Origin: Bacteroidota bacterium
GTDB taxonomy: Bacteria > Bacteroidota > Bacteroidia > Cytophagales > ES-bin-26
Assembly: GCA_040385915.1 (NCBI GenBank)
Contig: JAZKGK010000153.1
Span: 12,466-43,075, forward strand
Direction of reading: 5' to 3'
Length of the DNA stretch: 30,610 nt
Position 1 is the stretch's first letter, and each line of letters begins with the position of its first letter. The notes beneath the pieces are model-generated. The model had not been told where the DNA came from. It saw only the letters and a program-made list of their open reading frames with translations, and did no database searches. A program made the position numbers and the translations under genes. Shown piece by piece: positions 3,057 to 30,610 of the stretch.

Positions 3057-3902
3057 GTGAAACCGCTGATTCAAAAATTACCGCTTTCTGAGCAGTCGTC
3101 CTTTGTGGCTGATACGTTTATAACACCCGCTTTTGAAACGCCCTGGCATTACCACGAGGAATACGAATTAGTCTTGATTCTCCAAAGCCATGGGAAGCGT
3201 TTCGTGGGCAATCACGTATCCGACTATGCCGTGGGCGAACTTGATTTTCTGGGCTCTAACCTACCGCATTGGTACCGGAAAGAAGACACGCAAGCGACAG
3301 GAGGCTCACTGGTCATTCACTTCCGGAAAGAATTTCTAGGAAAGGATTTTTTGGCGATTCCTGAAATGCAAAAAATTGGCTTTCTGTTCGAAAAGGCGCG
3401 GATGGGGCTGCACATAGGCGGGGAAACCCGGAGGGTCATGTGCGAGAAAATGCACGAAATGCTGGAATTAACAGGCATGAATCGGCTGACCGGATTGTTG
3501 GCTATCCTCGCCATCCTGGCCGACTCCGACGAATACGAATTGCTTTCTGGCCCCGAGATGAACGAACAAAACCCCCGCGACAGCGATCGGCTGAACAAGG
3601 TGTTCGACTACGTGATGGAGCATTTCAAGGAAGAAATCCGGGTGGAGGAGGTCGCCGACCTGGCGATGATGAGTTATTCGGGCTTCTGCCGGTATTTTAA
3701 GAATCGGACGAAAAAAAACTTTTCCCATTTTGTCAACGAAATCAGGATTGGTTACGCCTGTAAACGCCTGATGGAAAGAGACAGCAGGGTGACGAGCATT
3801 TGTTACGAAAGTGGTTTTCATAACCTAGCCAACTTTTCCAAACAATTCAAAAACATTGTCAAATGTACACCCCGGCAGTTTCAATCGCGACAGAATCGAT
3901 AA
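3057..3902 (+). CDS. AraC family transcriptional regulator (cupin-like N-terminal domain plus C-terminal AraC-type HTH)
   Basis: The C-terminal 100 aa carry the two-HTH AraC signature (…EEVADLAMMSYSGFCRYFKNRTKKNFSHFVNEIRIGYACKRL…GFHNLANFSKQFKNIVKCTPRQF). The N-terminal region has a His-rich cupin-like 'PWHYHEEYELVLI'. Apparent GTG start at 3057. It is divergent from the PhyH/Gfo/TIM operon. Confidence 0.85.
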   Translation: MKPLIQKLPLSEQSSFVADTFITPAFETPWHYHEEYELVLILQSHGKRFVGNHVSDYAVGELDFLGSNLPHWYRKEDTQATGGSLVIHFRKEFLGKDFLAIPEMQKIGFLFEKARMGLHIGGETRRVMCEKMHEMLELTGMNRLTGLLAILAILADSDEYELLSGPEMNEQNPRDSDRLNKVFDYVMEHFKEEIRVEEVADLAMMSYSGFCRYFKNRTKKNFSHFVNEIRIGYACKRLMERDSRVTSICYESGFHNLANFSKQFKNIVKCTPRQFQSRQNR

Positions 3903-3996: not shown

Positions 3997-4109
3997 CTGA
4001 GCGGACGCTCAGACCCACTTTTAGTCAAGCGACCGCTTGGCTTCCCTATACATTATTCCGTAAACGCCAATCAACCATCCTACCTTCGCCTCACTTATCT
4101 GCTCCACTG
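3997..4109 (+). repeat. Copy A of a ~112-bp repeat element (palindrome-1 ctgagcg-ga-cgctcag, palindrome-2 caagcg-ac-cgcttg, then a ~60-bp tail)
   Basis: Aligns at ~85% identity over ~112 bp with 5642..5752 (same orientation), and in inverted orientation with 30461..30549. Confidence 0.8.
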
Positions 4110-4121
4110 ATTCACGCTTAA

Positions 4122-4598
4122 TCATTTTACTTTTTTATTTGGAAGATAATCTTTATAAACCGACATTCCATTGCGAGGATTCCAGCCAAGAAGATAGATT
4201 TCACCAGAAGTTTGATTCTGAACAAAAGCTTTTTGAGATAGACTATCAATTGCAGTCAATTCTGATACAAATTTGCAATTCTTATTCTGTAGAATAGCGG
4301 CAATTTTTATGCTATCAAGCTGCTTGTGGTCGATAGAATATATCGCTCTAATAAAAACAGAATTATCATTGGCTATATGCTCATAGTGAACAAAGGTGTG
4401 ACCTTCCTGCTTGATATAGTAATTAGGCCATTTAAGCAATACGAAATCGTCATCCAGCAGTTTTTCACCAGAAAGACAGGAAACACTATTGTAGAAACCA
4501 AAACTGTCTTTGGAACAACATACATCACTAAATTGGCAAGAGAAAACTATCAATAGTAAGAAAATGCAAATGGAGAATAAATTAAGGGTTTTAGACAT
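4122..4598 (-). CDS. Hypothetical lipoprotein (ORFan, AT-rich)
   Basis: 158-aa ORF. N-terminal signal peptide with a lipobox-like LIVFSC. GC content is far below the surrounding genes. No recognisable domain. Confidence 0.5.
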   Translation of the reverse strand: MSKTLNLFSICIFLLLIVFSCQFSDVCCSKDSFGFYNSVSCLSGEKLLDDDFVLLKWPNYYIKQEGHTFVHYEHIANDNSVFIRAIYSIDHKQLDSIKIAAILQNKNCKFVSELTAIDSLSQKAFVQNQTSGEIYLLGWNPRNGMSVYKDYLPNKKVK

Positions 4599-4661
4599 TA
4601 GTGTTTGATAAAATCTGGTTTTGGTTCTTTATAATGCGAATTTATTAAAGCTCACCTCTTA

Positions 4662-4688
4662 GTCTTAGCGGACGCTCAATGCTGTCAA
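4662..4688 (+). repeat. Solo terminal-repeat-like copy (gtcttagcggacgctcaatgctgtcaa) of the MITE-like element's inverted repeat
   Basis: 27/27 match to the reverse complement of the right TIR at 5625..5659. Contains the agcg-ga-cgct palindrome core. Confidence 0.7.
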
Positions 4689-4730
4689 ATGCCAAAAGAA
4701 GGGCTGGGACTAGAAGGAGAAAGCAACTAA

Positions 4731-5414
4731 TTAGTCCCATTGAAGGAGAGTAAGTTTTAGGGGTATAGCTTCGGAAGTCTTAAGCTTAATAGCCCGAACC
4801 GACATAAGTCTTAGGTCAATAGACAATGTATCCAAATCCTCTGAATCATAAATTTGTTCACTTACATAAAGTTTTTGATTTTTATTATCTAAGATGTAGT
4901 ATTCTATGTATCCTACAGGTGAGGAATAATAGCTAAATATTGACAAGCCATTATGATTGTATTTATAAATGAAATCATCTTCATTTATACTATCAATAGC
5001 TTTCACTTTCCCTATACTATCACCATTACAAATAATTAAGCAATTTGTAATTGATGAATCTTTATATTTTATATTTTCATCATAGTCAATTTTAATCAAT
5101 AAAAGATGATTGTCTTGCGCAAAATAGTCCTTGTAAAACAAAAGCTTATTTATTGGAAATTTAGAATTAATAATACCCGTCTTTAATAACACCTGATAAG
5201 CCCATAATAAACTATCCTTATTTAGTGCCATTACAGTATTAGTTTTCTTCGGTTGTTCTATCTGGGCTGTTTTTTCAACTCTCTGAATAGAGATTATCTC
5301 CGACTTTTGCATCTTTTTTGTTGTATCAGAACTACAATCAAAAGCCAATAAGATTAAGAAAAAAAGCATAATCTTCACGATTAAATTTTGCAAGATTTTA
5401 GTTAGCATCGTCAT
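4731..5414 (-). CDS. Hypothetical lipoprotein (ORFan, very AT-rich)
   Basis: 227-aa ORF. Hydrophobic N-terminus ending in the lipobox-like LLAFDCSS. About 30% GC. Asn/Lys/Ile/Tyr-rich. No recognisable domain. Start could be an internal Met (5366). Confidence 0.5.
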   Translation of the reverse strand: MTMLTKILQNLIVKIMLFFLILLAFDCSSDTTKKMQKSEIISIQRVEKTAQIEQPKKTNTVMALNKDSLLWAYQVLLKTGIINSKFPINKLLFYKDYFAQDNHLLLIKIDYDENIKYKDSSITNCLIICNGDSIGKVKAIDSINEDDFIYKYNHNGLSIFSYYSSPVGYIEYYILDNKNQKLYVSEQIYDSEDLDTLSIDLRLMSVRAIKLKTSEAIPLKLTLLQWD

Positions 5415-5448
5415 TTTTATTAATGCAAAAGTCTCAGATCAATTCTGC

Positions 5449-5659
5449 CTGGTCTTAGCGTCCGCTCAATGCTGTCAACTTAAGGATAAAAAGGTGTTTT
5501 CTTCTTCTCTGTTGTCATCCTGAGCGGAGCGAAGGACCTTGTTATGGAGTTACCACTAAACAAATAATAAGGTCCTTCGCTCCGCTCAGGATGACAATCG
5601 CCTGTATAAAGTGGTGGCCATGTTCCTTAAGTTGACAGCATTGAGCGTCCGCTAAGACC
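5449..5659. mobile_element. MITE-like nested palindromic element: 35-bp terminal inverted repeats (5451..5485 and 5625..5659; 33/35 complementary) around a 28-bp perfect inner stem (5513..5540 / 5569..5596) with a 28-nt loop
   Basis: Direct inspection. The left TIR ggtcttagcgtccgctcaatgctgtcaacttaagg is the reverse complement of the right TIR except for the central dinucleotide. The inner IR tgtcatcctgagcggagcgaaggacctt / aaggtccttcgctccgctcaggatgaca is perfect. No ORF inside. Confidence 0.65.
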
Positions 5660-5752
5660 CACCCTTAGCCAAGCGTCCGCTTGGATTGCTTTACATTATC
5701 CAGTAAACGCCAATCAACCATGCTACCCTCGCCTCACTCATCTGCTCACTGC
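5642..5752 (+). repeat. Copy B of the ~112-bp repeat element (direct repeat of 3997..4109); its 5' end coincides with the right TIR of the MITE-like element
   Basis: tgagcgtccgctaagacccacccttagccaagcgtccgcttgg…ccagtaaacgccaatcaaccatgctaccctcgcctcactcatctgctcactg aligns with copy A at ~85% identity. Confidence 0.8.
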
Positions 5753-14288: not shown

Positions 14289-14315
14289 GGCTCGTTCGAT
14301 TGCCGGATTGTTAAA

Positions 14316-14376
14316 CAAAAGAAAGGAAAAAGCCCCAATACTACCTTACAGTAGGGAGGCTTTTTCCTTTCTTTTG
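14316..14376 (-). promoter_or_regulatory. Hairpin between the third GH1-like gene and the GH5-like gene (19-bp perfect stem, 23-nt loop)
   Basis: caaaagaaaggaaaaagcc (14316..14334) pairs with ggctttttcctttcttttg (14358..14376). Lies 28 bp upstream of the preferred GH5 start codon and between two co-directional genes. Confidence 0.4.
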
Positions 14377-14386
14377 TCAAATTTGC

Positions 14387-15861: not shown

Positions 15862-15903
15862 TAAAAAAGCCCTTTGTAAATGATTCATTTACAAAGGGCT
15901 TTT
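15862..15903 (-). terminator. Rho-independent terminator (bidirectional-capable) downstream of cvpA
   Basis: aagccctttgtaaatg / catttacaaagggctt forms a 16-bp stem with a 3-nt loop. It is flanked by AAAAA on the plus strand (U-tract for the minus-strand transcript) and TTT on the other side. Confidence 0.75.
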
Positions 15904-16473: not shown

Positions 16474-16497
16474 AGTAAAAGACAGATGTGTAAATTA

Positions 16498-16549
16498 GTA
16501 GAGGTGCAGATGAGTAGCTAAAAGCCTATCTACTCATCTGCACCTCTAC
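16498..16549 (-). terminator. 20-bp perfect inverted repeat with 12-nt loop between ilvC and cvpA (candidate terminator or partial terminator)
   Basis: gtagaggtgcagatgagtag … ctactcatctgcacctctac, located 15 bp past the ilvC stop. The U-tract is weak, so function is uncertain. Confidence 0.45.
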
Positions 16550-16563
16550 ACATCTACTTATTG

Positions 16564-21960: not shown

Positions 21961-22629
21961 ATGAAAGAATTACTCGATTGGGCATTTATTTCCATTAATT
22001 TTCCGCTCACCCTCCTATTACTGGTTATTCTGTTGTACTGGCTTACCGTAATTGTCGGCCTGATCGATTTCAGCTTTCTTCATTTCGACATAGATGCGGA
22101 CATTCATATAGATGGTCATGCGCATGTGCATCTGGAGAAAAACATCCATGTAGATGTAAAAGCGAAACAAAGTCTCTTCACTTCTCTGCTTAATTTTTTC
22201 AATTTGGGAAAAGTGCCTTTCATGATTTTCCTTAGCTTCATGGTTTTATTTATGTGGAGCGGTAGTATTCTAGGGAATTATTACCTCCATAATCAATCGG
22301 TCGGTTTTGCCCTGTTGCTGCTCATTCCCAACTTTATTAGCAGCCTGTTTCTGACCAAGTTTCTTACGTTTCCCCTCATTCACGTTTTTTCTGATGGCAA
22401 AAATGAATTTGAAGCCAATAGTGATTTGATTGGCAAGCCTTGTACACTCCTGCTCTCGGCCACGGAACAGAAAGTGGGTCAGGCAGAAGTGCTATCCGCT
22501 ACGGGTGCGCCGCTGTTACTGACAGTGAAAACCACCACCGGACACCAACTCAAACGAGGCGAAAGAGGGCTGGTGATTGATTATGACCCAGTCACGCACA
22601 CCTACTTAATAGAACCATTTGACCAATAA
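21961..22629 (+). CDS. NfeD/YqiJ-like membrane protein (N-terminal TM helices plus C-terminal NfeD-type OB-fold)
   Basis: 222 aa with three or four hydrophobic segments. The C-terminus 'GKPCTLLLSATEQKVGQAEVLSATGAPLLLTVKTTTGHQLKRGERGLVIDYDP' has the NfeD short-form beta-barrel pattern. It is immediately upstream of a flotillin gene, as in yqiJ-yqiK and nfeD-floT pairs. A His-rich stretch (HIDGHAHVHLEKNIHVD) is present. Confidence 0.65.
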   Translation: MKELLDWAFISINFPLTLLLLVILLYWLTVIVGLIDFSFLHFDIDADIHIDGHAHVHLEKNIHVDVKAKQSLFTSLLNFFNLGKVPFMIFLSFMVLFMWSGSILGNYYLHNQSVGFALLLLIPNFISSLFLTKFLTFPLIHVFSDGKNEFEANSDLIGKPCTLLLSATEQKVGQAEVLSATGAPLLLTVKTTTGHQLKRGERGLVIDYDPVTHTYLIEPFDQ

Positions 22630-22630
22630 A

Positions 22631-22687
22631 GTAAAGAGTTGAAAGTTGAGAGTAAAAAGCTTGAACTCTCAACTTTCAACTCTTTAC
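22631..22687 (+). promoter_or_regulatory. 23-bp perfect hairpin (11-nt loop) between the nfeD-like and flotillin genes
   Basis: gtaaagagttgaaagttgagagt (22631..22653) pairs with actctcaactttcaactctttac (22665..22687). Starts 2 nt after the upstream stop codon and ends 20 nt before the flotillin ATG. Followed by the U-rich tttcaacttaattt. Confidence 0.6.
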
Positions 22688-22707
22688 TTTCAACTTAATT
22701 TAAAACT

Positions 22708-24861
22708 ATGTTTGCAAATTTTATCATTGTAGTGGGCGTTATCGCTGCCGTTTTTTTATTAGGTTTTGTAGCCCTTATTGTCAGTTGCTATAAAAAGGTA
22801 AGCCAGGGAAAGGCTTTGGTCCGCACCGGTTTTGGTGATCTCACCGTTCGCTTCAATGCCATGTTCGTTTTTCCGGTACTTCACCAGCTGGAAATTATGG
22901 ACATCTCGCTCAAAACAGTGGAAATCAGCCGGACAGGGAAAGATGGTCTGATCTGTAAAGACAATATGCGGGCGGATATTAAAGTCGCCTTTTTTGTGCG
23001 GGTAAACAAAACGAAGGAAGATGTCGAGAAAGTAGCCCAGGCCATTGGTTGTGCCCGCGCTTCCGATTACGCCTTGCTACGCGAACTGTTTGAAGCCAAG
23101 TTTTCGGAAGGCTTGAAAACCATCGGCAAGCGGTTTGACTTCGTAGACTTATACGATTCGCGCGAAAAATTTAAGCTGGAAATTTTGGAAGCCATTGGAC
23201 GCGACCTCAATGGCTATGTACTAGACGATTGTGCCATCGATTACTTGGAACAAACGCCCATCACTTTCCTGAGCGAAGATAATATCCTGGATTCGGAAGG
23301 TATCAAGAAGATTGCCGACCTTACTGCCCAACAGAAGATCAAAGCCAACCAAATCCGGCGCGACGAGCAAAAGGTGATTACCAAGCAAAATGTGGAAGCC
23401 CGCGAAGCCATTCTGGAACTGGAACGCCAATTAGCTGAAAAAGAAGAAAAGCAGAAACGCGAAGTATTAGCCATCAAGTCCCGCGAAGAAGCTGAAACGA
23501 AGAAGATTGCTTCAGAAGAATTTATGAAGTCGGAACAGGCGCGCATCCGCACGGAAGAAGAATTGCAGGTGGCTGAGCAAAACAAGCAGCGGCAGGTAAT
23601 TGTGGCGACCAAGGCCAAGGAAAAAACCGAAGCGGTGGAAATTGAACGCGTGCAAAAGGAGCGTCAGTTGGAGGTAAATGAGCGCGAACGAATCGTAGAA
23701 CTGGCCCGGATTGAGAAAGACAAAGCCATTGAAGAAGAGAAAAAGAATATCCAGGATGTAATTAGAGAACGGGTAATTGTAGAAAAGGCCGTAGTAGTTG
23801 AAGAAGAAAAGATAAAAGACACGCGTGCCTTTGCCCTGGCCGAACGCGACAAGGCGGTCGCAATTAAGAATGCAGAAAAAGTAGCGGAAGAAGCGCTGGT
23901 ACAGCAAATCAAATCAGCAGAAGCCAGCAAACGCTCGGCTGAACTATACGCAGAGCAGTCAATTATGCAAGCGAATGCCGACCGCCAGGTGGCGGAGAAA
24001 TCTTCGGAAGCCAAAAAGATTATGGCGGCAGCCAAGACAATCGAAGAAGCGGCTACTGGTCTGGCCGAAGCACAAGTGATGGAAGCCAAGTCGCTTGCCC
24101 ACGAAAAACAGGGAACGGTTGAAGCCAATATTATTGAGAAGAAGGCCATTGCCGATGCCAAGGGAATCGAAGCCAAAGCATCTGCCCTCGAAAAGCAGGG
24201 ATTGACCGAAGCCAATGTACTGGAACAAAAGGGAAGCGCCGAAGCAAGAGTCATTTCTATAAAGGCTGCTTCTGTAAAAGAGCAAGGTCTGGCTGAAGCA
24301 GATGTTATGGAGAAAAAGGGTCTGGCCGAAGCCTTGCGTATCGAAGCTAGAGCCAACGCCACCAAACAGCTCGATGGCGTAGGCAAAGAGCACGAAGAGT
24401 TCAAGCTCCGTCTACAACAAGTTACGGACATCGAACTGGCCAAAATTAATATCCAGAAAGACATTGCCAATGCCCAAGCCAGTGTAATTAGCGAAGCTCT
24501 CAAAGCCTCTAACATCAACATTGTGGGTGGCGAAACGATGTTCTACGAAAATATTATGGGAGCCATCACCAAGGGCAAATCCATTGATAGCTTCGTGAGC
24601 AATAGCCAGGTAATCCAAGGCGTACAACACGCCCTGATGAATGGTAACGGCACCGACGGCTCTATGGGTGATAAAATCAAAAGGCTGGTGAATCAATTCG
24701 GGATCTCTTCCGAAGACGTGAAGAACCTGACGATCTCTGCCCTGCTCTTCAAAATGCTCAACCTGACTTCAGACGATGGCGTAAAAGGCCTGTTGAATGA
24801 CTTGATGCATACAGCTAAGAAGGATGGCCTTGGAGATAAAAAGGCTGGGACGGTGTTGTAG
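22708..24861 (+). CDS. Flotillin-like SPFH/Band-7 domain protein (YqiK/FloT type) with long coiled-coil and C-terminal EA-type 11-residue repeats
   Basis: 717 aa. N-terminal TM helix (IIVVGVIAAVFLLGFVALIV) followed by an SPFH domain. A long Glu/Lys/Ala-rich coiled coil follows. Repeated units (…EKKGLAEA…/…EQKGSAEA…/…EKQGLTEA…) are typical of flotillin. Confidence 0.85.
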   Translation: MFANFIIVVGVIAAVFLLGFVALIVSCYKKVSQGKALVRTGFGDLTVRFNAMFVFPVLHQLEIMDISLKTVEISRTGKDGLICKDNMRADIKVAFFVRVNKTKEDVEKVAQAIGCARASDYALLRELFEAKFSEGLKTIGKRFDFVDLYDSREKFKLEILEAIGRDLNGYVLDDCAIDYLEQTPITFLSEDNILDSEGIKKIADLTAQQKIKANQIRRDEQKVITKQNVEAREAILELERQLAEKEEKQKREVLAIKSREEAETKKIASEEFMKSEQARIRTEEELQVAEQNKQRQVIVATKAKEKTEAVEIERVQKERQLEVNERERIVELARIEKDKAIEEEKKNIQDVIRERVIVEKAVVVEEEKIKDTRAFALAERDKAVAIKNAEKVAEEALVQQIKSAEASKRSAELYAEQSIMQANADRQVAEKSSEAKKIMAAAKTIEEAATGLAEAQVMEAKSLAHEKQGTVEANIIEKKAIADAKGIEAKASALEKQGLTEANVLEQKGSAEARVISIKAASVKEQGLAEADVMEKKGLAEALRIEARANATKQLDGVGKEHEEFKLRLQQVTDIELAKINIQKDIANAQASVISEALKASNINIVGGETMFYENIMGAITKGKSIDSFVSNSQVIQGVQHALMNGNGTDGSMGDKIKRLVNQFGISSEDVKNLTISALLFKMLNLTSDDGVKGLLNDLMHTAKKDGLGDKKAGTVL

Positions 24862-24884
24862 ATCCATTCGTCAATCGTATTTAC

Positions 24885-24964
24885 GTAGGGGCAGGCAGAC
24901 GGCGATCCGGCTTGCCCCTGCCCTAAACAACCTGCATAAGGGCAGGGGCAAGCCCTGCCCCTAC
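24885..24964. repeat. GC-rich nested palindromic element between the flotillin and giant-ATPase genes
   Basis: ggcttgcccctgccct (24909..24924) pairs with agggcaggggcaagcc (24939..24954), a 16-bp perfect stem. An outer pair gtaggggcagg (24885..24895) / cctgcccctac (24954..24964) is also present. The motif gggcagggg occurs three times. Confidence 0.6.
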
Positions 24965-24972
24965 CTAATGTA

Positions 24973-27900
24973 TTGCATCTCCTCCCCAACATGACTGAAA
25001 CCACTCCCAATACACCCCAGCTCGAAGCGGGCACGTACGAAATCATTCGGAAGCGGCTCGACAACCACGGCAAAGACCTGCGCGAACGGCTGGACAATCT
25101 GAACCACGCCCGGAAAGACGTGTTCGGTGCCATTGATACCCAGCTGATTGCGAACAATCGCATTGCTACCGAAAATAATTGCATTCCCCGCGATATGATT
25201 CCAGTGGGGAGCCAGTTCATTTTCGGCTACAACGTGCATTTGGGACTAAAATCGGAAGTGGAATTATCGGACGTGTTCAGCGTGTACGAATACGATTCCC
25301 GCGATCATTCCTTCCATCAAAAGCCGCTGGATCTGATCAAAAATGCCGAATTCGAGACGCTGATCAAAGAACTGTACAAATATTATAAATACGCTGCTTT
25401 CCTCAAATTCACTATTATGGGGCCGCACTTGTTTATGGTATTCCAGATTGGCAAGAGCGCAAAAGATATTAAGACGTTCAAATGGCTGATTAAAGAAGAT
25501 AAAAATGCAGCGGCAGGGCAACCTTCCGATAGCTTGCATTACCTCGATAACCGCAGCGACCAGGAATTTAAATTTCCGCCTCAGCACGAGTTTGAGTGGA
25601 AACGAACCCGGCGCGATTACCAACGCACCGGCAAGCACCCCCACATTTCCATTGAAGACAAGATTTTCGTCGAAACCATTGGCGGTGACCTCACCATCAA
25701 AATAGAAGACAATACCGATACGGGCGAAGGGATTTATGCCGAAAAAGTGGAGCAGGCGGAGCAAACGCTCGACGATGCCGAATTTCACTACGCCAATCTC
25801 GGTCATCTTATTTTACTCAAAGTCAGGCCGTATCAGGAGAACAAGAATCGCTACATTATTTATAACGACAAGCTCAAGAAGGCCGTCCGTGTAGATGCGA
25901 TCAAAGATGCCTGCGTATTATTGCCTGACAGCCAGGGCTTGATCTTCTCGAATGGCTACTACCTGCAATCGGGCGAGTTGAAACAGTTTGATGGACTGAC
26001 CAGCGGCACCACGGCATCGACCGCACCACTGGAAAATATGCTGTTTGAAAAGCGCATTATTTCGCCCAATGGAGAGGATTTCCTATACGTGTTTTACAAT
26101 GAAGAAGCGGGCATTTATGTCCTGCTGTCTTATAACCTGATTGAGCAAAAAGTAGAAACGCCCATCGTTTGTAATGGCTTTTCTTTATTTGATAGTGGCG
26201 AACTGGTGTATTTCAAAAGCTCCAACGAGCCGACCAAAAACCACGCCCTGCAAATCTGGCAAACGCCTTACGTTAGTGCTGATTATCAGTCGCCCGTAGA
26301 GCAAAAAAGCTACCTGTACAAGGTTGGCAACAAGGATATTGTACGCGCGATGGCCGAGTGTACAGAAATGGTGAACCTCATTCAGCGTGAAGACGTGTAC
26401 AGCACGCTTTACATGGATCTGGTCAAGAAAACCAATAACATTCTTGATGCTTATTACTGGCTAAACCAAAGCGAAGCCTTCCAGCTCAACCTGCCATTGG
26501 GCGAAATCCGGGCAGCGGCTACCGGCGCTATTGACGAATTTGAGAAGGTAACGAAGGTCAGAAAGAATACCCAGCAGCAAACGGACATCACCGCCAAGAA
26601 GGTGAAGGATTTGCGGGAAAGCGCCAAGAAGGCAGTATTTGAGAATGTTGATCAATACGTTCATTTGCTGGCTAACCTTCGTAGCATGCGCGGCGAAACG
26701 ATCTCGCTCAAAGACCTGCGCTACGCAGATGTACCATTCATTGAAGCGCTCGAAAAATCGTTGGAAGAACAAAGCCAGCTTACTTCCGAAGCTTGCGTCA
26801 GCTATCTGTTGCAGGAAAACTCGCTGGATTTTTACCGCAACAAAGTAGAAACCCAACGGCAGGCAATTGAGACAGTACAAAAAGTGGCCGATGCCACCAT
26901 CATCGAAAAGGACACAGATGCGGCAGGCAAAGAACTGGATTTGCTGATTGAGATTGTCAGCAACCTAAAAATTGCCGATTCCACCCAAACTACGCGCATC
27001 ATCGACAATATTTCGGTTGTGTATGCCAGCCTGAATCAGGTGAAAGCGGGTTTAAAAACGAGGAAAAAGGAACTGTCGAGTGTAGAAGCGGTGGCTGAGT
27101 TTAATGCCCAGGTAAAACTGCTGAGCCAGGCTTTAATCAACTACCTCGACGTATGCGAAACGCCACAAACCTGCGACGAATACCTGACCAAACTAATGGT
27201 TCAGGTAGAAGAACTGGAGGGCAAGTTTGTTGATTTTGATGAATTTACCGAAAAGCTGGCCGATAAACGCGAGGAAATCTACAGCGCTTTCGAAGCCAAA
27301 AAGCTGGCGCTGACCGAAGCCCGCAATAAAAAAGCGACGGGTTTAATGTCGGCTGCCGAACGTATCCTGAAAGGCATTCAGAACCGAGTAGCCAACTTCA
27401 AGACCATCAACGAGATCAATGGCTATTTTGCTGCGGATATGATGATCGAGAAGATTCGCGACTTGGTCAGCCAGCTCGTGGCCATGGATGATACTGTGAA
27501 GGCTGACGATATCCAGAGCCGACTGAAAACCATTCGGGAAGACACCGTGCGGCAGTTAAAAGACCGCCAGGAGTTGTTTGTAGATGGGCAAAACATCATC
27601 CGCCTGGGCAAGCATGCCTTCACAGTCAACGTCCAAAACCTGGATTTGACTATTGTAAATAAGGAAAAGGAGATGTTTTACCACCTCACTGGCACCAATT
27701 TTTTCGAAGTCATTTCCGATCCCGCTTTCCTGGCTACCCGCGAGGTTTGGACCCAGGAACTGGTTTCTGAAAATGGCCAGGTGTACCGCGCCGAATATTT
27801 GGCCTACAAAATTTACCAGGAAACACAAACCCAGCTCCTGGCTCCGGGCATTGTGCATACAGATTTGTTGGCCCACGTACAGCAATTTATGGCCTCGCGC

Positions 27901-29943
27901 TATACTGAAGGCTATGTGAAGGGAATTCACGACCACGACGCCTCCCAGATTCTGCAAGCATTACTCGAACTGCACCAGCAAATCGACTTATTACGCTACG
28001 AGCCAACGGTTCGAACCTGCGCTGCTCTTTATTGGAATCACATCATTGGAGCGGAAGCCAAGGAAAATTTACACCATCGATTGAAAGGCATTGGCATTAT
28101 CCGACAGGCATTTCCCGATACCAAAAGCTTTAGCGATGTATTAGCCGATATCCGCGCTGGCATCGACAATTTTTTGAAAAATACGACACTATTTGATTCA
28201 GCTCTGGCCTCGTATGCCAGCACTTACCTTTTCGAAGAACTGACCAGAGGCGATATTTTCGTCATTAGTCGCTCGGCTGAAACCATTTACCAAGCTTTTC
28301 TGGACTATCTGAAGCAGAATAAACTTCGTGATTTATTCGATTCTTCGCTGGATAAACTGAAGGAAAAACCGCTGGAACGTTTTGAAATGACCCGTCATTG
28401 GGTGAAAGCATTTATCAATCAATCAAAGCAAGACGGAGAAGCCACGTACATACATGAAGCGGCCTTGCTGCTTTTTGAAGGCAATTTCACTCCTCAACGC
28501 GTGGTACAAGCCACTACCCACCGCGAACTGAGCGTCATGTACGGCAGCCACTCAGTCATCGAAAACAAAACCTATCGGTTGGATTACAATGCTTTTGTAC
28601 GGAAAATGGATAGCTTCGATCAAACGGTTGTACCTCGCTATGAGCAATACGTAGCCCTGAAAAAGAGTCTGGCCGAAGCCTTCCGTATTCAGCTCCGCCT
28701 CGACGAATTCAAGCCCCGCGTATTGACTTCGTTCGTTCGTAATAAACTGGTAGACCAACTGTACTTGCCGCTGGTGGGCGATAACCTAGCCAAGCAAATT
28801 GGCGTGGCTGGCGAAGGGAAACGCACCGATTTGATGGGAATGCTGTTGCTGGTTTCGCCGCCGGGTTATGGTAAAACGACCTTGATGGAATACGTAGCCA
28901 ATCGCCTGGGCCTTATTTTCATGAAGATCAATGGCCCGGCCATCGGTCACCGCGTCACTTCGCTCGACCCGGCAGAAGCACCTAATGCCAGCGCTCGAGA
29001 AGAGCTGAACAAACTGAATCTAGCCTTCGAAATGGGCGACAACGTAATGATTTACGTGGATGATATTCAGCACTGTAACCCGGAATTTTTGCAAAAATTC
29101 ATCTCCCTCTGCGATGGGCAACGCAAGATCGAAGGCGTTTATCAGGGCAAAAGCAAGACGTACGACTTACGAGGCAAGAAAGTCTGCGTGGTCATGGCCG
29201 GAAATCCTTATACCGAAAGCGGCGACAAATTCCAGATTCCCGACATGCTCGCCAACCGGGCCGACACGTATAACTTAGGCGATATCATTGGCGACACGGA
29301 AGAAATCTTCAAACTGAGCTACGTGGAGAACTGCCTGACAGCCAACCCGACCTTGAACACGCTGGCAACCCGAAGCCAAAAAGATGTGTATGCACTCGTT
29401 CATCTCGCCGAAAATGGTAGCCGCGAAGGGCTGGAATTTGAGGCCAATTATTCGGCGGAAGAACTCAACGAATACGTCACTGTGTTGAAAAAGCTCATGG
29501 TCGTCCGCGATGTGATTCTGCGCAACAACCTGGAATACATCCGTTCGGCTGCCCAAAGCGACGAATTCCGAACCGAACCGCCTTTCAAGTTGCAAGGCTC
29601 TTACCGCAACATGAATAAGATTGCCGCCCGCGTGGTGCCCATTATGAACGACGCTGAACTGCAAACGCTCATGGTATCGCATTACGAAAACGAAGCCCAA
29701 ACACTAACAACCGGCGCAGAAGCCAACCTGCTCAAATTCAAGGATATTCAGACCCTGCTATCGGAGCCGGAACGCCAACGCTGGGATGAAATCAAAGCTA
29801 CTTTCCGCAAAAACCAGCGCTTCAAAGGCCTCGGCAGTACCGACCAGATGGGACAAATCCTCATGCAGCTCTCCTCCTTCGGCGACGGCCTGAATTCAAT
29901 CAAGGACGTTATTGCGGAGGGACTGAAGAATGGGAAGAAGTAG
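24973..29943 (+). CDS. Giant (1656-aa) protein with C-terminal MoxR/AAA_5-type AAA+ ATPase domain and ~1200-aa helical/coiled-coil N-terminal region of unknown function
   Basis: - Walker A: LLLVSPPGYGKTTLMEY (nt 28858..28881 encode PPGYGKTT).
- Walker B: NVMIYVDDIQH.
- Sensor/Arg-finger region: VVMAGNPYTESGDKFQIPDMLANRADTYNL, resembling MoxR 'ATQNP…LPEAQLDRF'.
- Upstream ~1200 aa: no recognisable domain, many predicted coiled-coil stretches.
- Start may be the internal Met at 24991 (MTETTPNT). Confidence 0.7.
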   Translation: MHLLPNMTETTPNTPQLEAGTYEIIRKRLDNHGKDLRERLDNLNHARKDVFGAIDTQLIANNRIATENNCIPRDMIPVGSQFIFGYNVHLGLKSEVELSDVFSVYEYDSRDHSFHQKPLDLIKNAEFETLIKELYKYYKYAAFLKFTIMGPHLFMVFQIGKSAKDIKTFKWLIKEDKNAAAGQPSDSLHYLDNRSDQEFKFPPQHEFEWKRTRRDYQRTGKHPHISIEDKIFVETIGGDLTIKIEDNTDTGEGIYAEKVEQAEQTLDDAEFHYANLGHLILLKVRPYQENKNRYIIYNDKLKKAVRVDAIKDACVLLPDSQGLIFSNGYYLQSGELKQFDGLTSGTTASTAPLENMLFEKRIISPNGEDFLYVFYNEEAGIYVLLSYNLIEQKVETPIVCNGFSLFDSGELVYFKSSNEPTKNHALQIWQTPYVSADYQSPVEQKSYLYKVGNKDIVRAMAECTEMVNLIQREDVYSTLYMDLVKKTNNILDAYYWLNQSEAFQLNLPLGEIRAAATGAIDEFEKVTKVRKNTQQQTDITAKKVKDLRESAKKAVFENVDQYVHLLANLRSMRGETISLKDLRYADVPFIEALEKSLEEQSQLTSEACVSYLLQENSLDFYRNKVETQRQAIETVQKVADATIIEKDTDAAGKELDLLIEIVSNLKIADSTQTTRIIDNISVVYASLNQVKAGLKTRKKELSSVEAVAEFNAQVKLLSQALINYLDVCETPQTCDEYLTKLMVQVEELEGKFVDFDEFTEKLADKREEIYSAFEAKKLALTEARNKKATGLMSAAERILKGIQNRVANFKTINEINGYFAADMMIEKIRDLVSQLVAMDDTVKADDIQSRLKTIREDTVRQLKDRQELFVDGQNIIRLGKHAFTVNVQNLDLTIVNKEKEMFYHLTGTNFFEVISDPAFLATREVWTQELVSENGQVYRAEYLAYKIYQETQTQLLAPGIVHTDLLAHVQQFMASRYTEGYVKGIHDHDASQILQALLELHQQIDLLRYEPTVRTCAALYWNHIIGAEAKENLHHRLKGIGIIRQAFPDTKSFSDVLADIRAGIDNFLKNTTLFDSALASYASTYLFEELTRGDIFVISRSAETIYQAFLDYLKQNKLRDLFDSSLDKLKEKPLERFEMTRHWVKAFINQSKQDGEATYIHEAALLLFEGNFTPQRVVQATTHRELSVMYGSHSVIENKTYRLDYNAFVRKMDSFDQTVVPRYEQYVALKKSLAEAFRIQLRLDEFKPRVLTSFVRNKLVDQLYLPLVGDNLAKQIGVAGEGKRTDLMGMLLLVSPPGYGKTTLMEYVANRLGLIFMKINGPAIGHRVTSLDPAEAPNASAREELNKLNLAFEMGDNVMIYVDDIQHCNPEFLQKFISLCDGQRKIEGVYQGKSKTYDLRGKKVCVVMAGNPYTESGDKFQIPDMLANRADTYNLGDIIGDTEEIFKLSYVENCLTANPTLNTLATRSQKDVYALVHLAENGSREGLEFEANYSAEELNEYVTVLKKLMVVRDVILRNNLEYIRSAAQSDEFRTEPPFKLQGSYRNMNKIAARVVPIMNDAELQTLMVSHYENEAQTLTTGAEANLLKFKDIQTLLSEPERQRWDEIKATFRKNQRFKGLGSTDQMGQILMQLSSFGDGLNSIKDVIAEGLKNGKK

Positions 29944-30064: not shown

Positions 30065-30355
30065 TTGACTCGTCGTAGATTACTTACTGAGTTATTATAC
30101 TCAACTCTGTTATCAATTGTTATTTTTAGCTTGATCAGCTTTTTAAGCTACATATTTACCTTAGAAATCTGGACTACTCCACCTGGCCACTCATTTAAAA
30201 TTGGCTTTCCTTGGCCTTTTTATTATCAAATGTTAGTAGAGAAAGATGTACAACATGGGTCTAACATATTAAATTTCCTCTTGGACATTGTACTTACTTG
30301 GGCAACAACAGTAATAAGTTGGCTTATTATAAAAAGGACCAAGGGCAGGAAATAA
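30065..30355 (+). CDS. Small hypothetical membrane protein (AT-rich ORFan, 2 TM)
   Basis: 96 aa with two strongly hydrophobic segments (LLSIVIFSLISFLSYIF; LLDIVLTWATTVISWLII). Low GC. Immediately followed by copies of the palindromic repeat family. Confidence 0.4.
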   Translation: MTRRRLLTELLYSTLLSIVIFSLISFLSYIFTLEIWTTPPGHSFKIGFPWPFYYQMLVEKDVQHGSNILNFLLDIVLTWATTVISWLIIKRTKGRK

Positions 30356-30360
30356 AGTCC

Positions 30361-30560
30361 CTGGCTGGTATTAGCGTCCGCTAATACCCTAAACTATTGA
30401 GCATCCGCTCAAATTACTACCAACCAATTATAGACATGCAGCCGATTATCCAGATGTCCAAAATAGGATGGTTGATGGGTATTTATCGGGTACATTCAGG
30501 CATTCAAGCGGATGCTTGATTAATCTTGGGTCTTAGCGGACGCTAAGACCAGACAGAGGC
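30361..30560. repeat. Cluster of palindromic repeat-family units, including an inverted, diverged copy (30461..30549) of the ~112-bp element seen at 3997..4109 and 5642..5752
   Basis: - ggtattagcg-tc-cgctaatacc (30367..30388).
- ttgagc-atcc-gctcaa (30397..30412).
- caagc-ggat-gcttg (30505..30518).
- ggtcttagcg-ga-cgctaagacc (30529..30550).
- taggatggttgat… aligns with the reverse complement of …atcaaccatcctac… in copies A and B. Confidence 0.7.
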
Positions 30561-30610
30561 TTACCGAAACGAAAAACTGGCCACAGGGCTACAGTTGTCT
30601 TTTACATATG

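Follow-up and report, generated by a model that had tools for sequence, protein, structure and literature searches.

The stretch of DNA analyzed here (the window, 30,610 nucleotides from contig JAZKGK010000153.1 of a Bacteroidota bacterium of the order Cytophagales) carries four small clusters of short palindromes, called A, B, C, and D below, whose parts are listed in Table 1. An initial annotation of the window had described them as a repeat family with covarying arms and a flipping central dinucleotide, resembling repetitive extragenic palindromes (REPs) and recognized by a protein. The evidence assembled below makes it very probable that these palindromes are the REPs of a REP-associated tyrosine transposase (RAYT, or TnpA-REP) of the Bacteroidota-specific subclass 2.6, equivalent to RAYT group 5, and that the window holds only relics of the system.

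All copies in the window are intergenic. The core AGCG-(GA/TC)-CGCT (AGCGKMCGCT) occurs seven times in the 30.6-kb window, compared with 0.14 ± 0.40 expected from 100 dinucleotide-preserving shuffles, and all seven cores are confined to the four extragenic clusters; the full palindrome of the longer hairpin matches three times against none expected. With its filters switched off, a covariance model built for the hairpin likewise scored the four clusters only, the rest of the window giving E values above 1. On the strand that carries the TC loop, the repeat is a module that starts with an unpaired 5' CT foot, continues with a hairpin of 10-bp stem (H1), and ends, after a spacer of about 10 nt, with a short hairpin (H2). 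The consensus of H1 is GGNNNNAGCG-TC-CGCTNNNNCC, which in the lineage of the window reads GGTCTTAGCG-TC-CGCTAAGACC. H2 has the general form NAAGCG-TC-CGCTTN and occurs in the window either as CAAGCG-TC-CGCTTG or, with a 4-nt loop, as TTGAGC-ATCC-GCTCAA.

Cluster D (30365-30552) has one such module at either end, in inverted orientation, so that ends of 42 nt that are 81% complementary surround 124 nt. Clusters A (3997-4104) and C (5644-5747) are direct H1-H2 copies, each followed by a tail of about 60 nt, and are 90% identical; the H1 of cluster A is without its CT foot and the three outermost nucleotides of the 5' arm, and, compared with the collinear copy at 5644-5659, its loop is inverted. 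All seven palindrome variants that the initial annotation had quoted were found in place, in clusters A, C (its H2), and D, and its account of units grouped in four clusters and lying in both orientations also stands. These units turned out, though, to be parts of longer modules and of RAYT relics, and three of them (4662-4688, 5451-5478, and 5632-5659) are half-hairpins, because an insertion split the hairpin.

Table 1. Parts of the four palindrome clusters in the window
Feature	Position	Strand	Description
Cluster A, H1 hairpin	3997-4015	-	CTGAGCG-GA-CGCTCAG (palindrome 3997-4012), then ACC; 15.9 bits, minus strand
Cluster A, H2 hairpin	4026-4039		CAAGCG-AC-CGCTTG
Cluster A, tail	4040-4104		90% identity over 59 nt with 5684-5747
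Cluster B, half H1 (5' arm and core)	4662-4676	-	GTCTTAGCG-GA-CGCT
Cluster B, relic of IS4-type element end	4677-4689	+	CAATGCTGTCAAA, 13 nt, directly against the REP core
Cluster C, left part of split H1	5449-5466	+	CT foot, 5' arm GGTCTT, core AGCGTCCGCT (first copy of 10-bp duplication, 5457-5466); 28.3 bits, E 2e-5
Cluster C, MITE (miniature inverted-repeat transposable element) inside H1	5467-5643		177 bp; 20-nt terminal inverted repeats
Cluster C, right part of split H1	5644-5659	+	Core AGCGTCCGCT (second duplication copy), 3' arm AAGACC
Cluster C, H2 hairpin	5670-5683	+	CAAGCG-TC-CGCTTG
Cluster C, tail	5684-5747		Homologous to 4040-4104
Cluster D, left H1	30365-30388	+	CT foot, then GGTATTAGCG-TC-CGCTAATACC (palindrome 30367-30388), perfect 10-bp stem; 38.2 bits, E 5e-8
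Cluster D, left H2	30397-30412	+	TTGAGC-ATCC-GCTCAA
Cluster D, interior of RAYT-deleted REPtron	30413-30504	+	RAYT 5' leader remnant, followed by roughly the final 20 codons of the RAYT
Cluster D, right H2, inverted	30505-30518	-	CAAGC-GGAT-GCTTG
Cluster D, right H1, inverted	30529-30552	-	GGTCTTAGCG-GA-CGCTAAGACC (palindrome 30529-30550), then AG (complement of the CT foot); 37.2 bits, E 9e-8

The initial annotation had made its case conditional on instances beyond the window, and these are plentiful. One pattern scan of 185,579 species-representative genomes, in which only two cores and a CC were fixed, returned at least 108 genomic stretches; all counts that follow on copies, arms, loci (numbered with the prefix L), and RAYT genes outside the window are among the matches listed. 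All but six of the stretches belong to Bacteroidota, broadly taken (Cytophagales, Spirosomataceae, Cyclobacteriaceae, Chitinophagales, Bacteroidales, Sphingobacteriales, and Balneolaceae), and the six chance matches fall in Enterobacteriaceae, Eubacteriales, Saccharibacillus, Clostridiales, Planctomycetaceae, and Agrobacterium. One fragmented metagenome-assembled genome (MAG) supplies several dozen of these stretches, many of them at contig ends. As in the window, the hairpins avoid genes, with 29 of 136 H1 hairpins (21%) lying within open frames of at least 120 codons compared with 83% of all bases. Larger arrangements also occur, among them palindromic units of four hairpins in MAG JAYUZN01 and recurrent units of 135 to 200 nt, with both ends present, in Chitinophagaceae loci. 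Many JAYUZN01 contigs stop inside the repeat, and the right end of the window itself (30560-30610) comes 50 nt past cluster D. Assemblies from short reads seem to break at such repeats, a hint that the source genome has many copies. A contig binned as Candidatus Woesebacteria (L054, JBGALL010000072.1) contains a REP unit near-identical to those of two Chitinophagaceae MAGs (L009 and L091) and is probably mis-binned.

In length (20 to 40 nt), in forming a hairpin on single-stranded DNA, and in keeping complementarity across variants, the palindromes behave as REPs do. Folded as single-stranded DNA, the single hairpins reach -5 to -8 kcal/mol (z -3.8 to -6.6), for example -7.1 kcal/mol (z -3.8) for the left H1 of cluster D and -5.4 kcal/mol (z -6.6) for its left H2, and cluster D as a whole forms a single long hairpin (-46.4 kcal/mol, z -8.3), as do the inverted doublets known as bacterial interspersed mosaic elements (BIMEs) or, in another nomenclature, REPINs. 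Across lineages, the core GCGTCCGC is constant, and the outer stem varies yet stays paired, with GGTGCAAGCG/CGCTTGTACC, GGCGCAAGCG/CGCTTGTGCC, GGTTCAAGCG/CGCTTGGACC, GGCTCGAGCG/CGCTCGTGCC, GGTCGAAGCG/CGCTTCGTCC, and GGTCTTAGCG/CGCTAAGACC as the pairs of different lineages. To avoid circularity, we re-ascertained the copies on the 5' half alone (CTGG, 5 nt, and GCGTCCGC) and read the 3' arm afterwards, which gave 131 matches with 37 distinct arm pairs. Watson-Crick pairing held at 129 of 185 free positions, against 89.5 ± 5.2 (maximum 110) when the arms were shuffled among copies. By pair counting over the 37 sequences, 88% of the cells were paired, compared with 28 to 45% when the partner was slid by 1 to 3 columns; four stem pairs changed on both sides, with 43 double-change cells versus 17.3 ± 3.9. 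The covariation score was 0.281 versus 0.124, and none of 500 shuffles reached either the score or the double-change count. The covariation of the arms claimed in the initial annotation is borne out by these pairs, significant against both shuffles and slid controls, as well as within cluster D, whose two H1 hairpins (GGTATT..AATACC and GGTCTT..AAGACC) differ by a compensated change from A-T to C-G.

The bases upstream of the stem, which the search pattern left unconstrained, are C in 44 and T in 50 of the 57 copies, and the 3' flank does not supply the complementary AG, so the foot is an unpaired conserved motif. A G.T or T.T is kept at one fixed stem position in many lineages, which makes the palindrome imperfect and strand-specific. 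With the CT foot used to orient H1, 121 of 126 loops read TC, and the five that read GA belong to copies with a foot on either side; the loop is TC or GA in 320 of 325 hairpins of the form AAGCG-NN-CGCTT. The loop is therefore a conserved sequence, and the central GA/TC flip reported for the window mostly reflects the orientation of the element. True loop inversions in otherwise collinear copies are few (window clusters A and B and loci L036, L047, L060, and L076) and would most simply arise from template switching within the palindrome.

Evidence for the identity of the repeats also comes from the genes that they flank in related genomes. In locus L035, the module is followed by an open reading frame (ORF) of 183 amino acids (1898-2449) that matches NF047646, the NCBIfam model of REP-associated tyrosine transposases, at 106 bits (cutoff, 80) and also matches Pfam Y1_Tnp; an inverted module lies downstream of it. 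A tblastn search with the L035 protein recovered 11 complete or near-complete RAYT genes, two of them interrupted by stops, and several fragments, and all of these genes and fragments adjoin module matches. RAYT genes bracketed by inverted modules are found in about 11 related genomes (L035, L016, L058, L062, L069, L081, L094, L106, and others), in every case with TC-loop copies on the left and GA-loop copies on the right. The arms that flank the gene are also dispersed within the same genome (OZ252261, JBBKVO01, and CALOAV01), and a Cytophagales MAG (L016) has exactly the H1 of the window, GGTCTTAGCG-TC-CGCTAAGACC, around a slightly decayed RAYT. The RAYT-like gene that the initial annotation had suggested looking for is therefore present in these relatives, while the window has only a RAYT-deleted shell. 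Together with the extragenic position of the copies and their covariation, the hairpins on both sides of NF047646 genes support its reading of a REP- or BIME-like, protein-recognized family.

The 11 RAYT proteins are 182 to 186 amino acids long and share the motifs (N/S)H[VIA]H, FW(Q/I/M)Q, Y(I/L)H(D/N/Q/R/E)NP, and SSA, with L094 reading THYNP after a stop. Subclass 2.6 is described, in the passages of the classification that treat it, as mostly from Bacteroidetes and about 179 amino acids long, with NH[LIV]H, WQ, YIH[QN]NP, and SS (Quentin et al. 2018, PMC6006769). Length, HuH motif, WQ, tyrosine motif, SS, and Bacteroidetes host all agree, and, judged on motifs and length, the proteins fit the signature of TnpA-Y1 subclass 2.6, that is, RAYT group 5. 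A sequence search of the RAYT against solved structures gave no match. In one of the loci (L069; CALOAV010000030.1, 192001-200000), an 8-kb region contains an array of REP units of about 170 nt with eight pattern matches, one intact RAYT gene (5121-5666), and one decayed copy (4234-4776); this locus is a REPtron with BIME-like amplification. In another (L058:3670-5150; JAAFIH010000017.1, Cytophagales), at least three hairpin subtypes lie side by side around the RAYT, one with 3-nt loops (GCG-TCA/TCT-CGC), one of the form GGCGCAAGCG-TC-..., and one of the window type (GGTCTTAGCG-GA-...), so several REP families coexist in one genome; a duplicated RAYT 3' fragment is also present.

Hairpins between genes could instead be primarily RNA elements, such as intrinsic terminators, stabilizers of mRNA 3' ends, or attenuators, with the link to RAYT genes being secondary. 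Enterobacterial REPs are known to stabilize mRNA. The initial annotation had suggested checking for an association with gene 3' ends or convergent gene pairs. Cluster A sits where two genes converge, between their ends at 3902 and 4122, and cluster D is downstream of a gene, whereas clusters B and C lie upstream of genes, and copies occur in both orientations. The G.T at a fixed stem position would be a G.U pair in RNA, and two H2 hairpins fit a loose terminator pattern. However, no T run follows H1, so that no H1 qualifies as an intrinsic terminator; the count of terminator-like matches lies at or close to the shuffle level (1 versus 1.1; 2 versus 0.5); the T.T mismatches that recur in some lineages are poor RNA pairs; and no Rfam family matches. 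Scans of the window for terminators and sigma-70 promoters stayed at chance level, the scan against Rfam 15 at the gathering score returned no match, and a tRNA scan of the window returned nothing. An RNA function also leaves the inverted modules that bracket RAYT genes in about 11 genomes unexplained. We therefore consider it very unlikely that RNA is what the hairpins primarily serve, although they may have such a secondary role.

Cluster D allows the link between repeat and transposase to be traced within the window. When it is compared with the L016 RAYT, the left part (30354-30430) aligns to the 5' leader with its REP doublet (79%, E 4e-10), and the right part (30430-30552) to the last 20 or so codons of the gene with its REP doublet (69%, E 1.6e-10); in the RAYT frame cluster D still reads ..AADY..V..MVD... 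By these alignments, cluster D is a REPtron that has lost its RAYT gene, the deletion running from a point just ahead of the start codon to one about 60 nt short of the stop. One could also take cluster D and related elements for ordinary MITEs that a DDE transposase moves, with the palindromes as part of their terminal repeats: the inverted ends of cluster D would suit this, as would the 135- to 200-nt units in Chitinophagaceae loci, and a true DDE-type MITE lies nearby at 5467-5643. We regard this as very unlikely, given that no target-site duplication was found at cluster D (flanks ...gtccctgg and acagaggc...), that alignment matches its two ends to the sequences flanking a RAYT gene on the 5' and the 3' side, last codons included, and that no DDE transposase bearing such ends turned up, the one transposase repeatedly bracketed by them being the Y1/HUH RAYT.

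Clusters A (3997-4104) and C (5449-5747) are solo ends. Their tails align to RAYT-bearing loci at low significance: 4040-4104 matches L032 at 64% over 90 nt (E 0.004), and 5684-5747 matches the RAYT 3' end of L106 at 66% over 89 nt (E 0.014), so that the tails may, tentatively, be decayed RAYT 3' ends. A minus-strand frame of the shared tail (..GWLIGVYGIM..), considered as a conserved peptide, was dropped as a red herring.

A third possibility is that the repeats are the ends of an autonomous insertion sequence (IS) of the IS200/IS605 type rather than the REPs of a domesticated RAYT. The associated protein does belong to the Y1_Tnp fold family, hairpin ends are a hallmark of IS200/IS605, and L069 has two RAYT copies, one of them decayed. 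Against this, the L035 protein passes the RAYT model and scores only 28 bits with the IS200 model, below its cutoff of 55; motifs and length fit subclass 2.6; gene-less hairpin copies far exceed genes; and the flanks are inverted here, whereas the two end hairpins of an IS200/IS605 element share one strand (PMC3333891). This explanation is in our judgment highly improbable. Finally, palindrome symmetry maintained by mutation alone, through quasi-palindrome template switching or gene conversion between arms, is scarcely credible: intrastrand template switching is established for quasi-palindromes and yields loop inversions like the few noted above, but it does not explain the invariant core, the unpaired CT foot, the orientation of the loop relative to the foot, or the RAYT association, and it would erase a mismatch that persists at one stem position.

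The RAYT-associated hairpins also appear to have attracted a second kind of mobile element. The H1 of cluster C has the layout CTGGTCTT-AGCGTCCGCT, a 177-bp insert, and AGCGTCCGCT-AAGACC, and the insert begins and ends with 20-nt terminal inverted repeats, CAATGCTGTCAACTTAAGGA (5467-5486) and TCCTTAAGTTGACAGCATTG (5624-5643). Its end motif CAATGCTGTCAA was absent from the first 109 loci. A single metagenome scan for the MITE junction then returned one full-length IS (L110, element 400-1800) of about 1.4 kb with an IS4-family transposase (NF033592, 174 bits; cutoff, 115; Pfam DDE_Tnp_1). This element ends in CAATGCTGTCAACTTAG and sits at the same position in a REP with different arms, its flanks being AGCGTGCGCT and AGCGTCCGCT. 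With its 20-nt repeats, its 10-bp duplication, and an IS4-family relative in L110, the segment at 5467-5643 has all the properties of a DDE-type MITE. Cluster B holds 13 nt of the same IS4-type end beside its half-hairpin, and three loci of another MAG (L036, L067, and L080) have a related end, CAATGTAGTCAGTT, directly against the core. The shared core position of L110 and the window MITE, together with the related ends at the core, suggests that the REP core is the target of an IS4-type lineage; this specificity is indicated by no more than two full junction pairs and four single junctions. The hairpin of cluster C would then have been struck by an IS4-family element that targets the core, leaving the MITE behind. 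Within the MITE lies a further hairpin (5512-5597; GTCATCCTGAGCGGAGCGAAGGAC...) with 34-nt arms that are 97% complementary and an 18-nt loop, of which no further copy was found in the window or the fetched loci.

Taken together, the two-hairpin module, the CT foot, the reading of the flip as orientation, the RAYT-deleted REPtron of cluster D, and the hairpin split by an IS4-derived MITE go beyond what the initial annotation had described. How such a system might work can be pictured from characterized TnpA-REP enzymes. Two inverted modules flanking a RAYT gene make up a REPtron, and gene-less doublets resembling REPINs or MITEs also occur. As with E. coli TnpA-REP, the hairpins would fold on single-stranded DNA, for example at replication forks, where the RAYT may read the folded stem, the core with its loop, and the foot. 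Its catalytic tyrosine would then cut nearby through a phosphotyrosine intermediate and rejoin the strands, so that doublets are moved or copied, most likely, by analogy with the TnpA-REP enzymes of E. coli, Stenotrophomonas maltophilia, and Marinomonas, on the lagging-strand template (PMC3333891, PMC3479197, PMC8266576). The outer stem could drift by compensatory change while core and foot stay fixed because an enzyme of this kind would need the stem but read only part of it. One may speculate that the conserved CT serves as guide or cleavage site.

A more specific proposal, which we put forward tentatively, is that the recognition code of subclass 2.6/group 5 RAYTs consists of the CT foot, the invariant core and loop GCG-TC-CGC, an obligatory second hairpin in head-to-tail orientation, and a freely covarying outer stem, the core being also the specific target of an IS4-family lineage. 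The GCG-TC-CGC core is conserved across Cytophagales, Chitinophagales, Bacteroidales, and Balneolales. Head-to-tail arrangement is reportedly rare or absent among REP dimers, a finding ascribed to Di Nocera et al.

Some observations weigh against assigning the window repeats to a subclass 2.6 RAYT. Profile scans and tblastn with the L035 protein found no RAYT gene in the window, whose copies are few and partly decayed and may be no more than inert relics here. For the tails of clusters A and C the match to RAYT genes is weak, and a profile of the RAYT C terminus run against six-frame pieces of the window did not rank them. The canonical GT[AG]G foot is absent, the foot being CT before GG; this absence fails the canonical definition of a REP but fits subclass 2.6, since it is a stated property of that subclass in the passages of the classification that describe it (PMC6006769). 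The sequences used for covariation are related, so that the shuffle control overstates their independence; the slid controls and the three to six pair types per variable position argue for real constraint. Lastly, for subclass 2.6 RAYTs we infer binding, cleavage site, and mobility by analogy; REP binding and cleavage have been shown only for the E. coli, S. maltophilia, and Marinomonas enzymes (PMC3333891, PMC8266576).

Other parts of the window bear less directly on the repeats. Two orphan ORFs on the minus strand (4122-4598 and 4731-5414), with lipoprotein-like N termini and no Pfam match, lie in a low-GC stretch (35% versus about 47%) bracketed by the direct REP-plus-tail copies of clusters A and C, so this DNA may have been acquired or rearranged. 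Integron attC sites were considered for these two genes bracketed by repeats and rejected, as the window has no integrase, the anatomy differs, and the RAYT link explains the repeats. Other intergenic inverted repeats, with perfect or near-perfect arms of 26 to 31 nt (22628-22690, 16490-16557, 14315-14377, and 15865-15903), do not belong to the REP family and probably act as terminators. Three plus-strand genes at 21961-29943 encode a YqiJ_N-like membrane protein, a repeat-rich protein of 717 amino acids with no Pfam match, and a protein of 1,656 amino acids with DUF3686, DUF7902, and AAA ATPase matches.

REP/RAYT systems are best known from Proteobacteria. The reference case is the REP/BIME system of E. 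coli with its subclass 2.2 TnpA-REP (Ton-Hoang et al. 2012, PMC3333891; Messing et al. 2012, PMC3479197; Corneloup et al. 2021, PMC8266576), an enzyme that requires a single-stranded, folded REP with its 5' motif and a stem mismatch and that cleaves at C|T (PMC3333891, PMC8266576). Like the E. coli REPs, the repeats described here lie outside genes and are imperfect palindromes that carry a conserved, unpaired motif on the 5' side and, in many cases, a mismatch in the stem; one Y1 transposase gene is enclosed by inverted copies, the arms vary by REP type yet remain complementary, and doublets can fold into long hairpins. Unlike them, they have a CT foot in place of GTAG, an inner stem and 2-nt loop that are invariant in sequence, and a doublet beside the gene that runs head to tail (H1 then H2, both with TC loops) rather than head to head, and their enzyme belongs to another subclass and is known here from its sequence. 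REPINs, in which two inverted REPs and a spacer form one long hairpin that is regarded as the unit that moves (Bertels and Rainey 2011, PMC3116915), resemble cluster D and the JAYUZN01 units; the present elements differ in having two hairpins per arm, and cluster D differs from dispersed REPINs in that its spacer is a RAYT gene remnant, which makes it a gutted REPtron.

The insertions into hairpins also have precedents, since ISs that target REPs include IS1397, ISKpn1, IS621, ISPpu9/10, and the IS4-family ISRm22 (Tobes and Pareja 2006, PMC1525189). As in those cases, L110 and the window MITE occupy a fixed position inside the REP hairpin, at the core with a 10-bp duplication of AGCGTCCGCT; the host phylum and the REP family are different here.

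The closest counterparts are the subclass 2.6/group 5 systems (PMC6006769; Bertels et al. 2017, PMC5581495), which, in the parts of those studies that describe them, share Bacteroidota hosts, a RAYT of about 180 amino acids, and its motifs. As here, the subclass 2.6 genes are described there as flanked by atypical hairpins without GT[AG]G, copies of which occur elsewhere in the genome (PMC6006769). The hairpins given as examples are GCTGGCGCGGGCGTCCCGCCCGTG (Aequorivita), GCTGGCGCGAGCATATGCTCGTGCC (Spirosoma linguale), and CTGGCGCAAGGTTCTACCTTGTGC (Flexibacter litoralis), and the first and last of these have the same (G)CTGG start and G.T-containing stem as the repeats studied here (PMC6006769). 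Judging by these examples, the published hairpins and the window-type REPs are plainly the same type of element. The table of that study lists single hairpins found by manual inspection and does not include the 2-nt-loop core GCGTCCGC, and its passages and tables on the subclass do not describe the head-to-tail module of H1 and H2; its REPtrons carry the gene, whereas the window has only relics of it (PMC6006769). A full-text literature search with four 12-mers containing GCGTCCGC returned no relevant paper.

The repeats of the window are, in sum, a clear example of an already known kind of element, the subclass 2.6 REPs of Bacteroidota. Where the literature on this subclass, in the passages at hand, speaks only of "atypical secondary structures" found by eye, the present analysis provides a sharp consensus (foot, core, and two-hairpin module), statistical covariation, and a covariance model usable for annotation. 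It also supplies examples from several stages of what would be the life cycle of such an element, namely the intact REPtron, the gutted REPtron, the solo ends, and capture by a REP-targeting IS. In practice, these repeats break metagenome assemblies, with many contigs, probably including the window, ending in them, and they mark sites of rearrangement. Our results leave the current understanding of REPs unchanged and extend it, in more detail, to another phylum.

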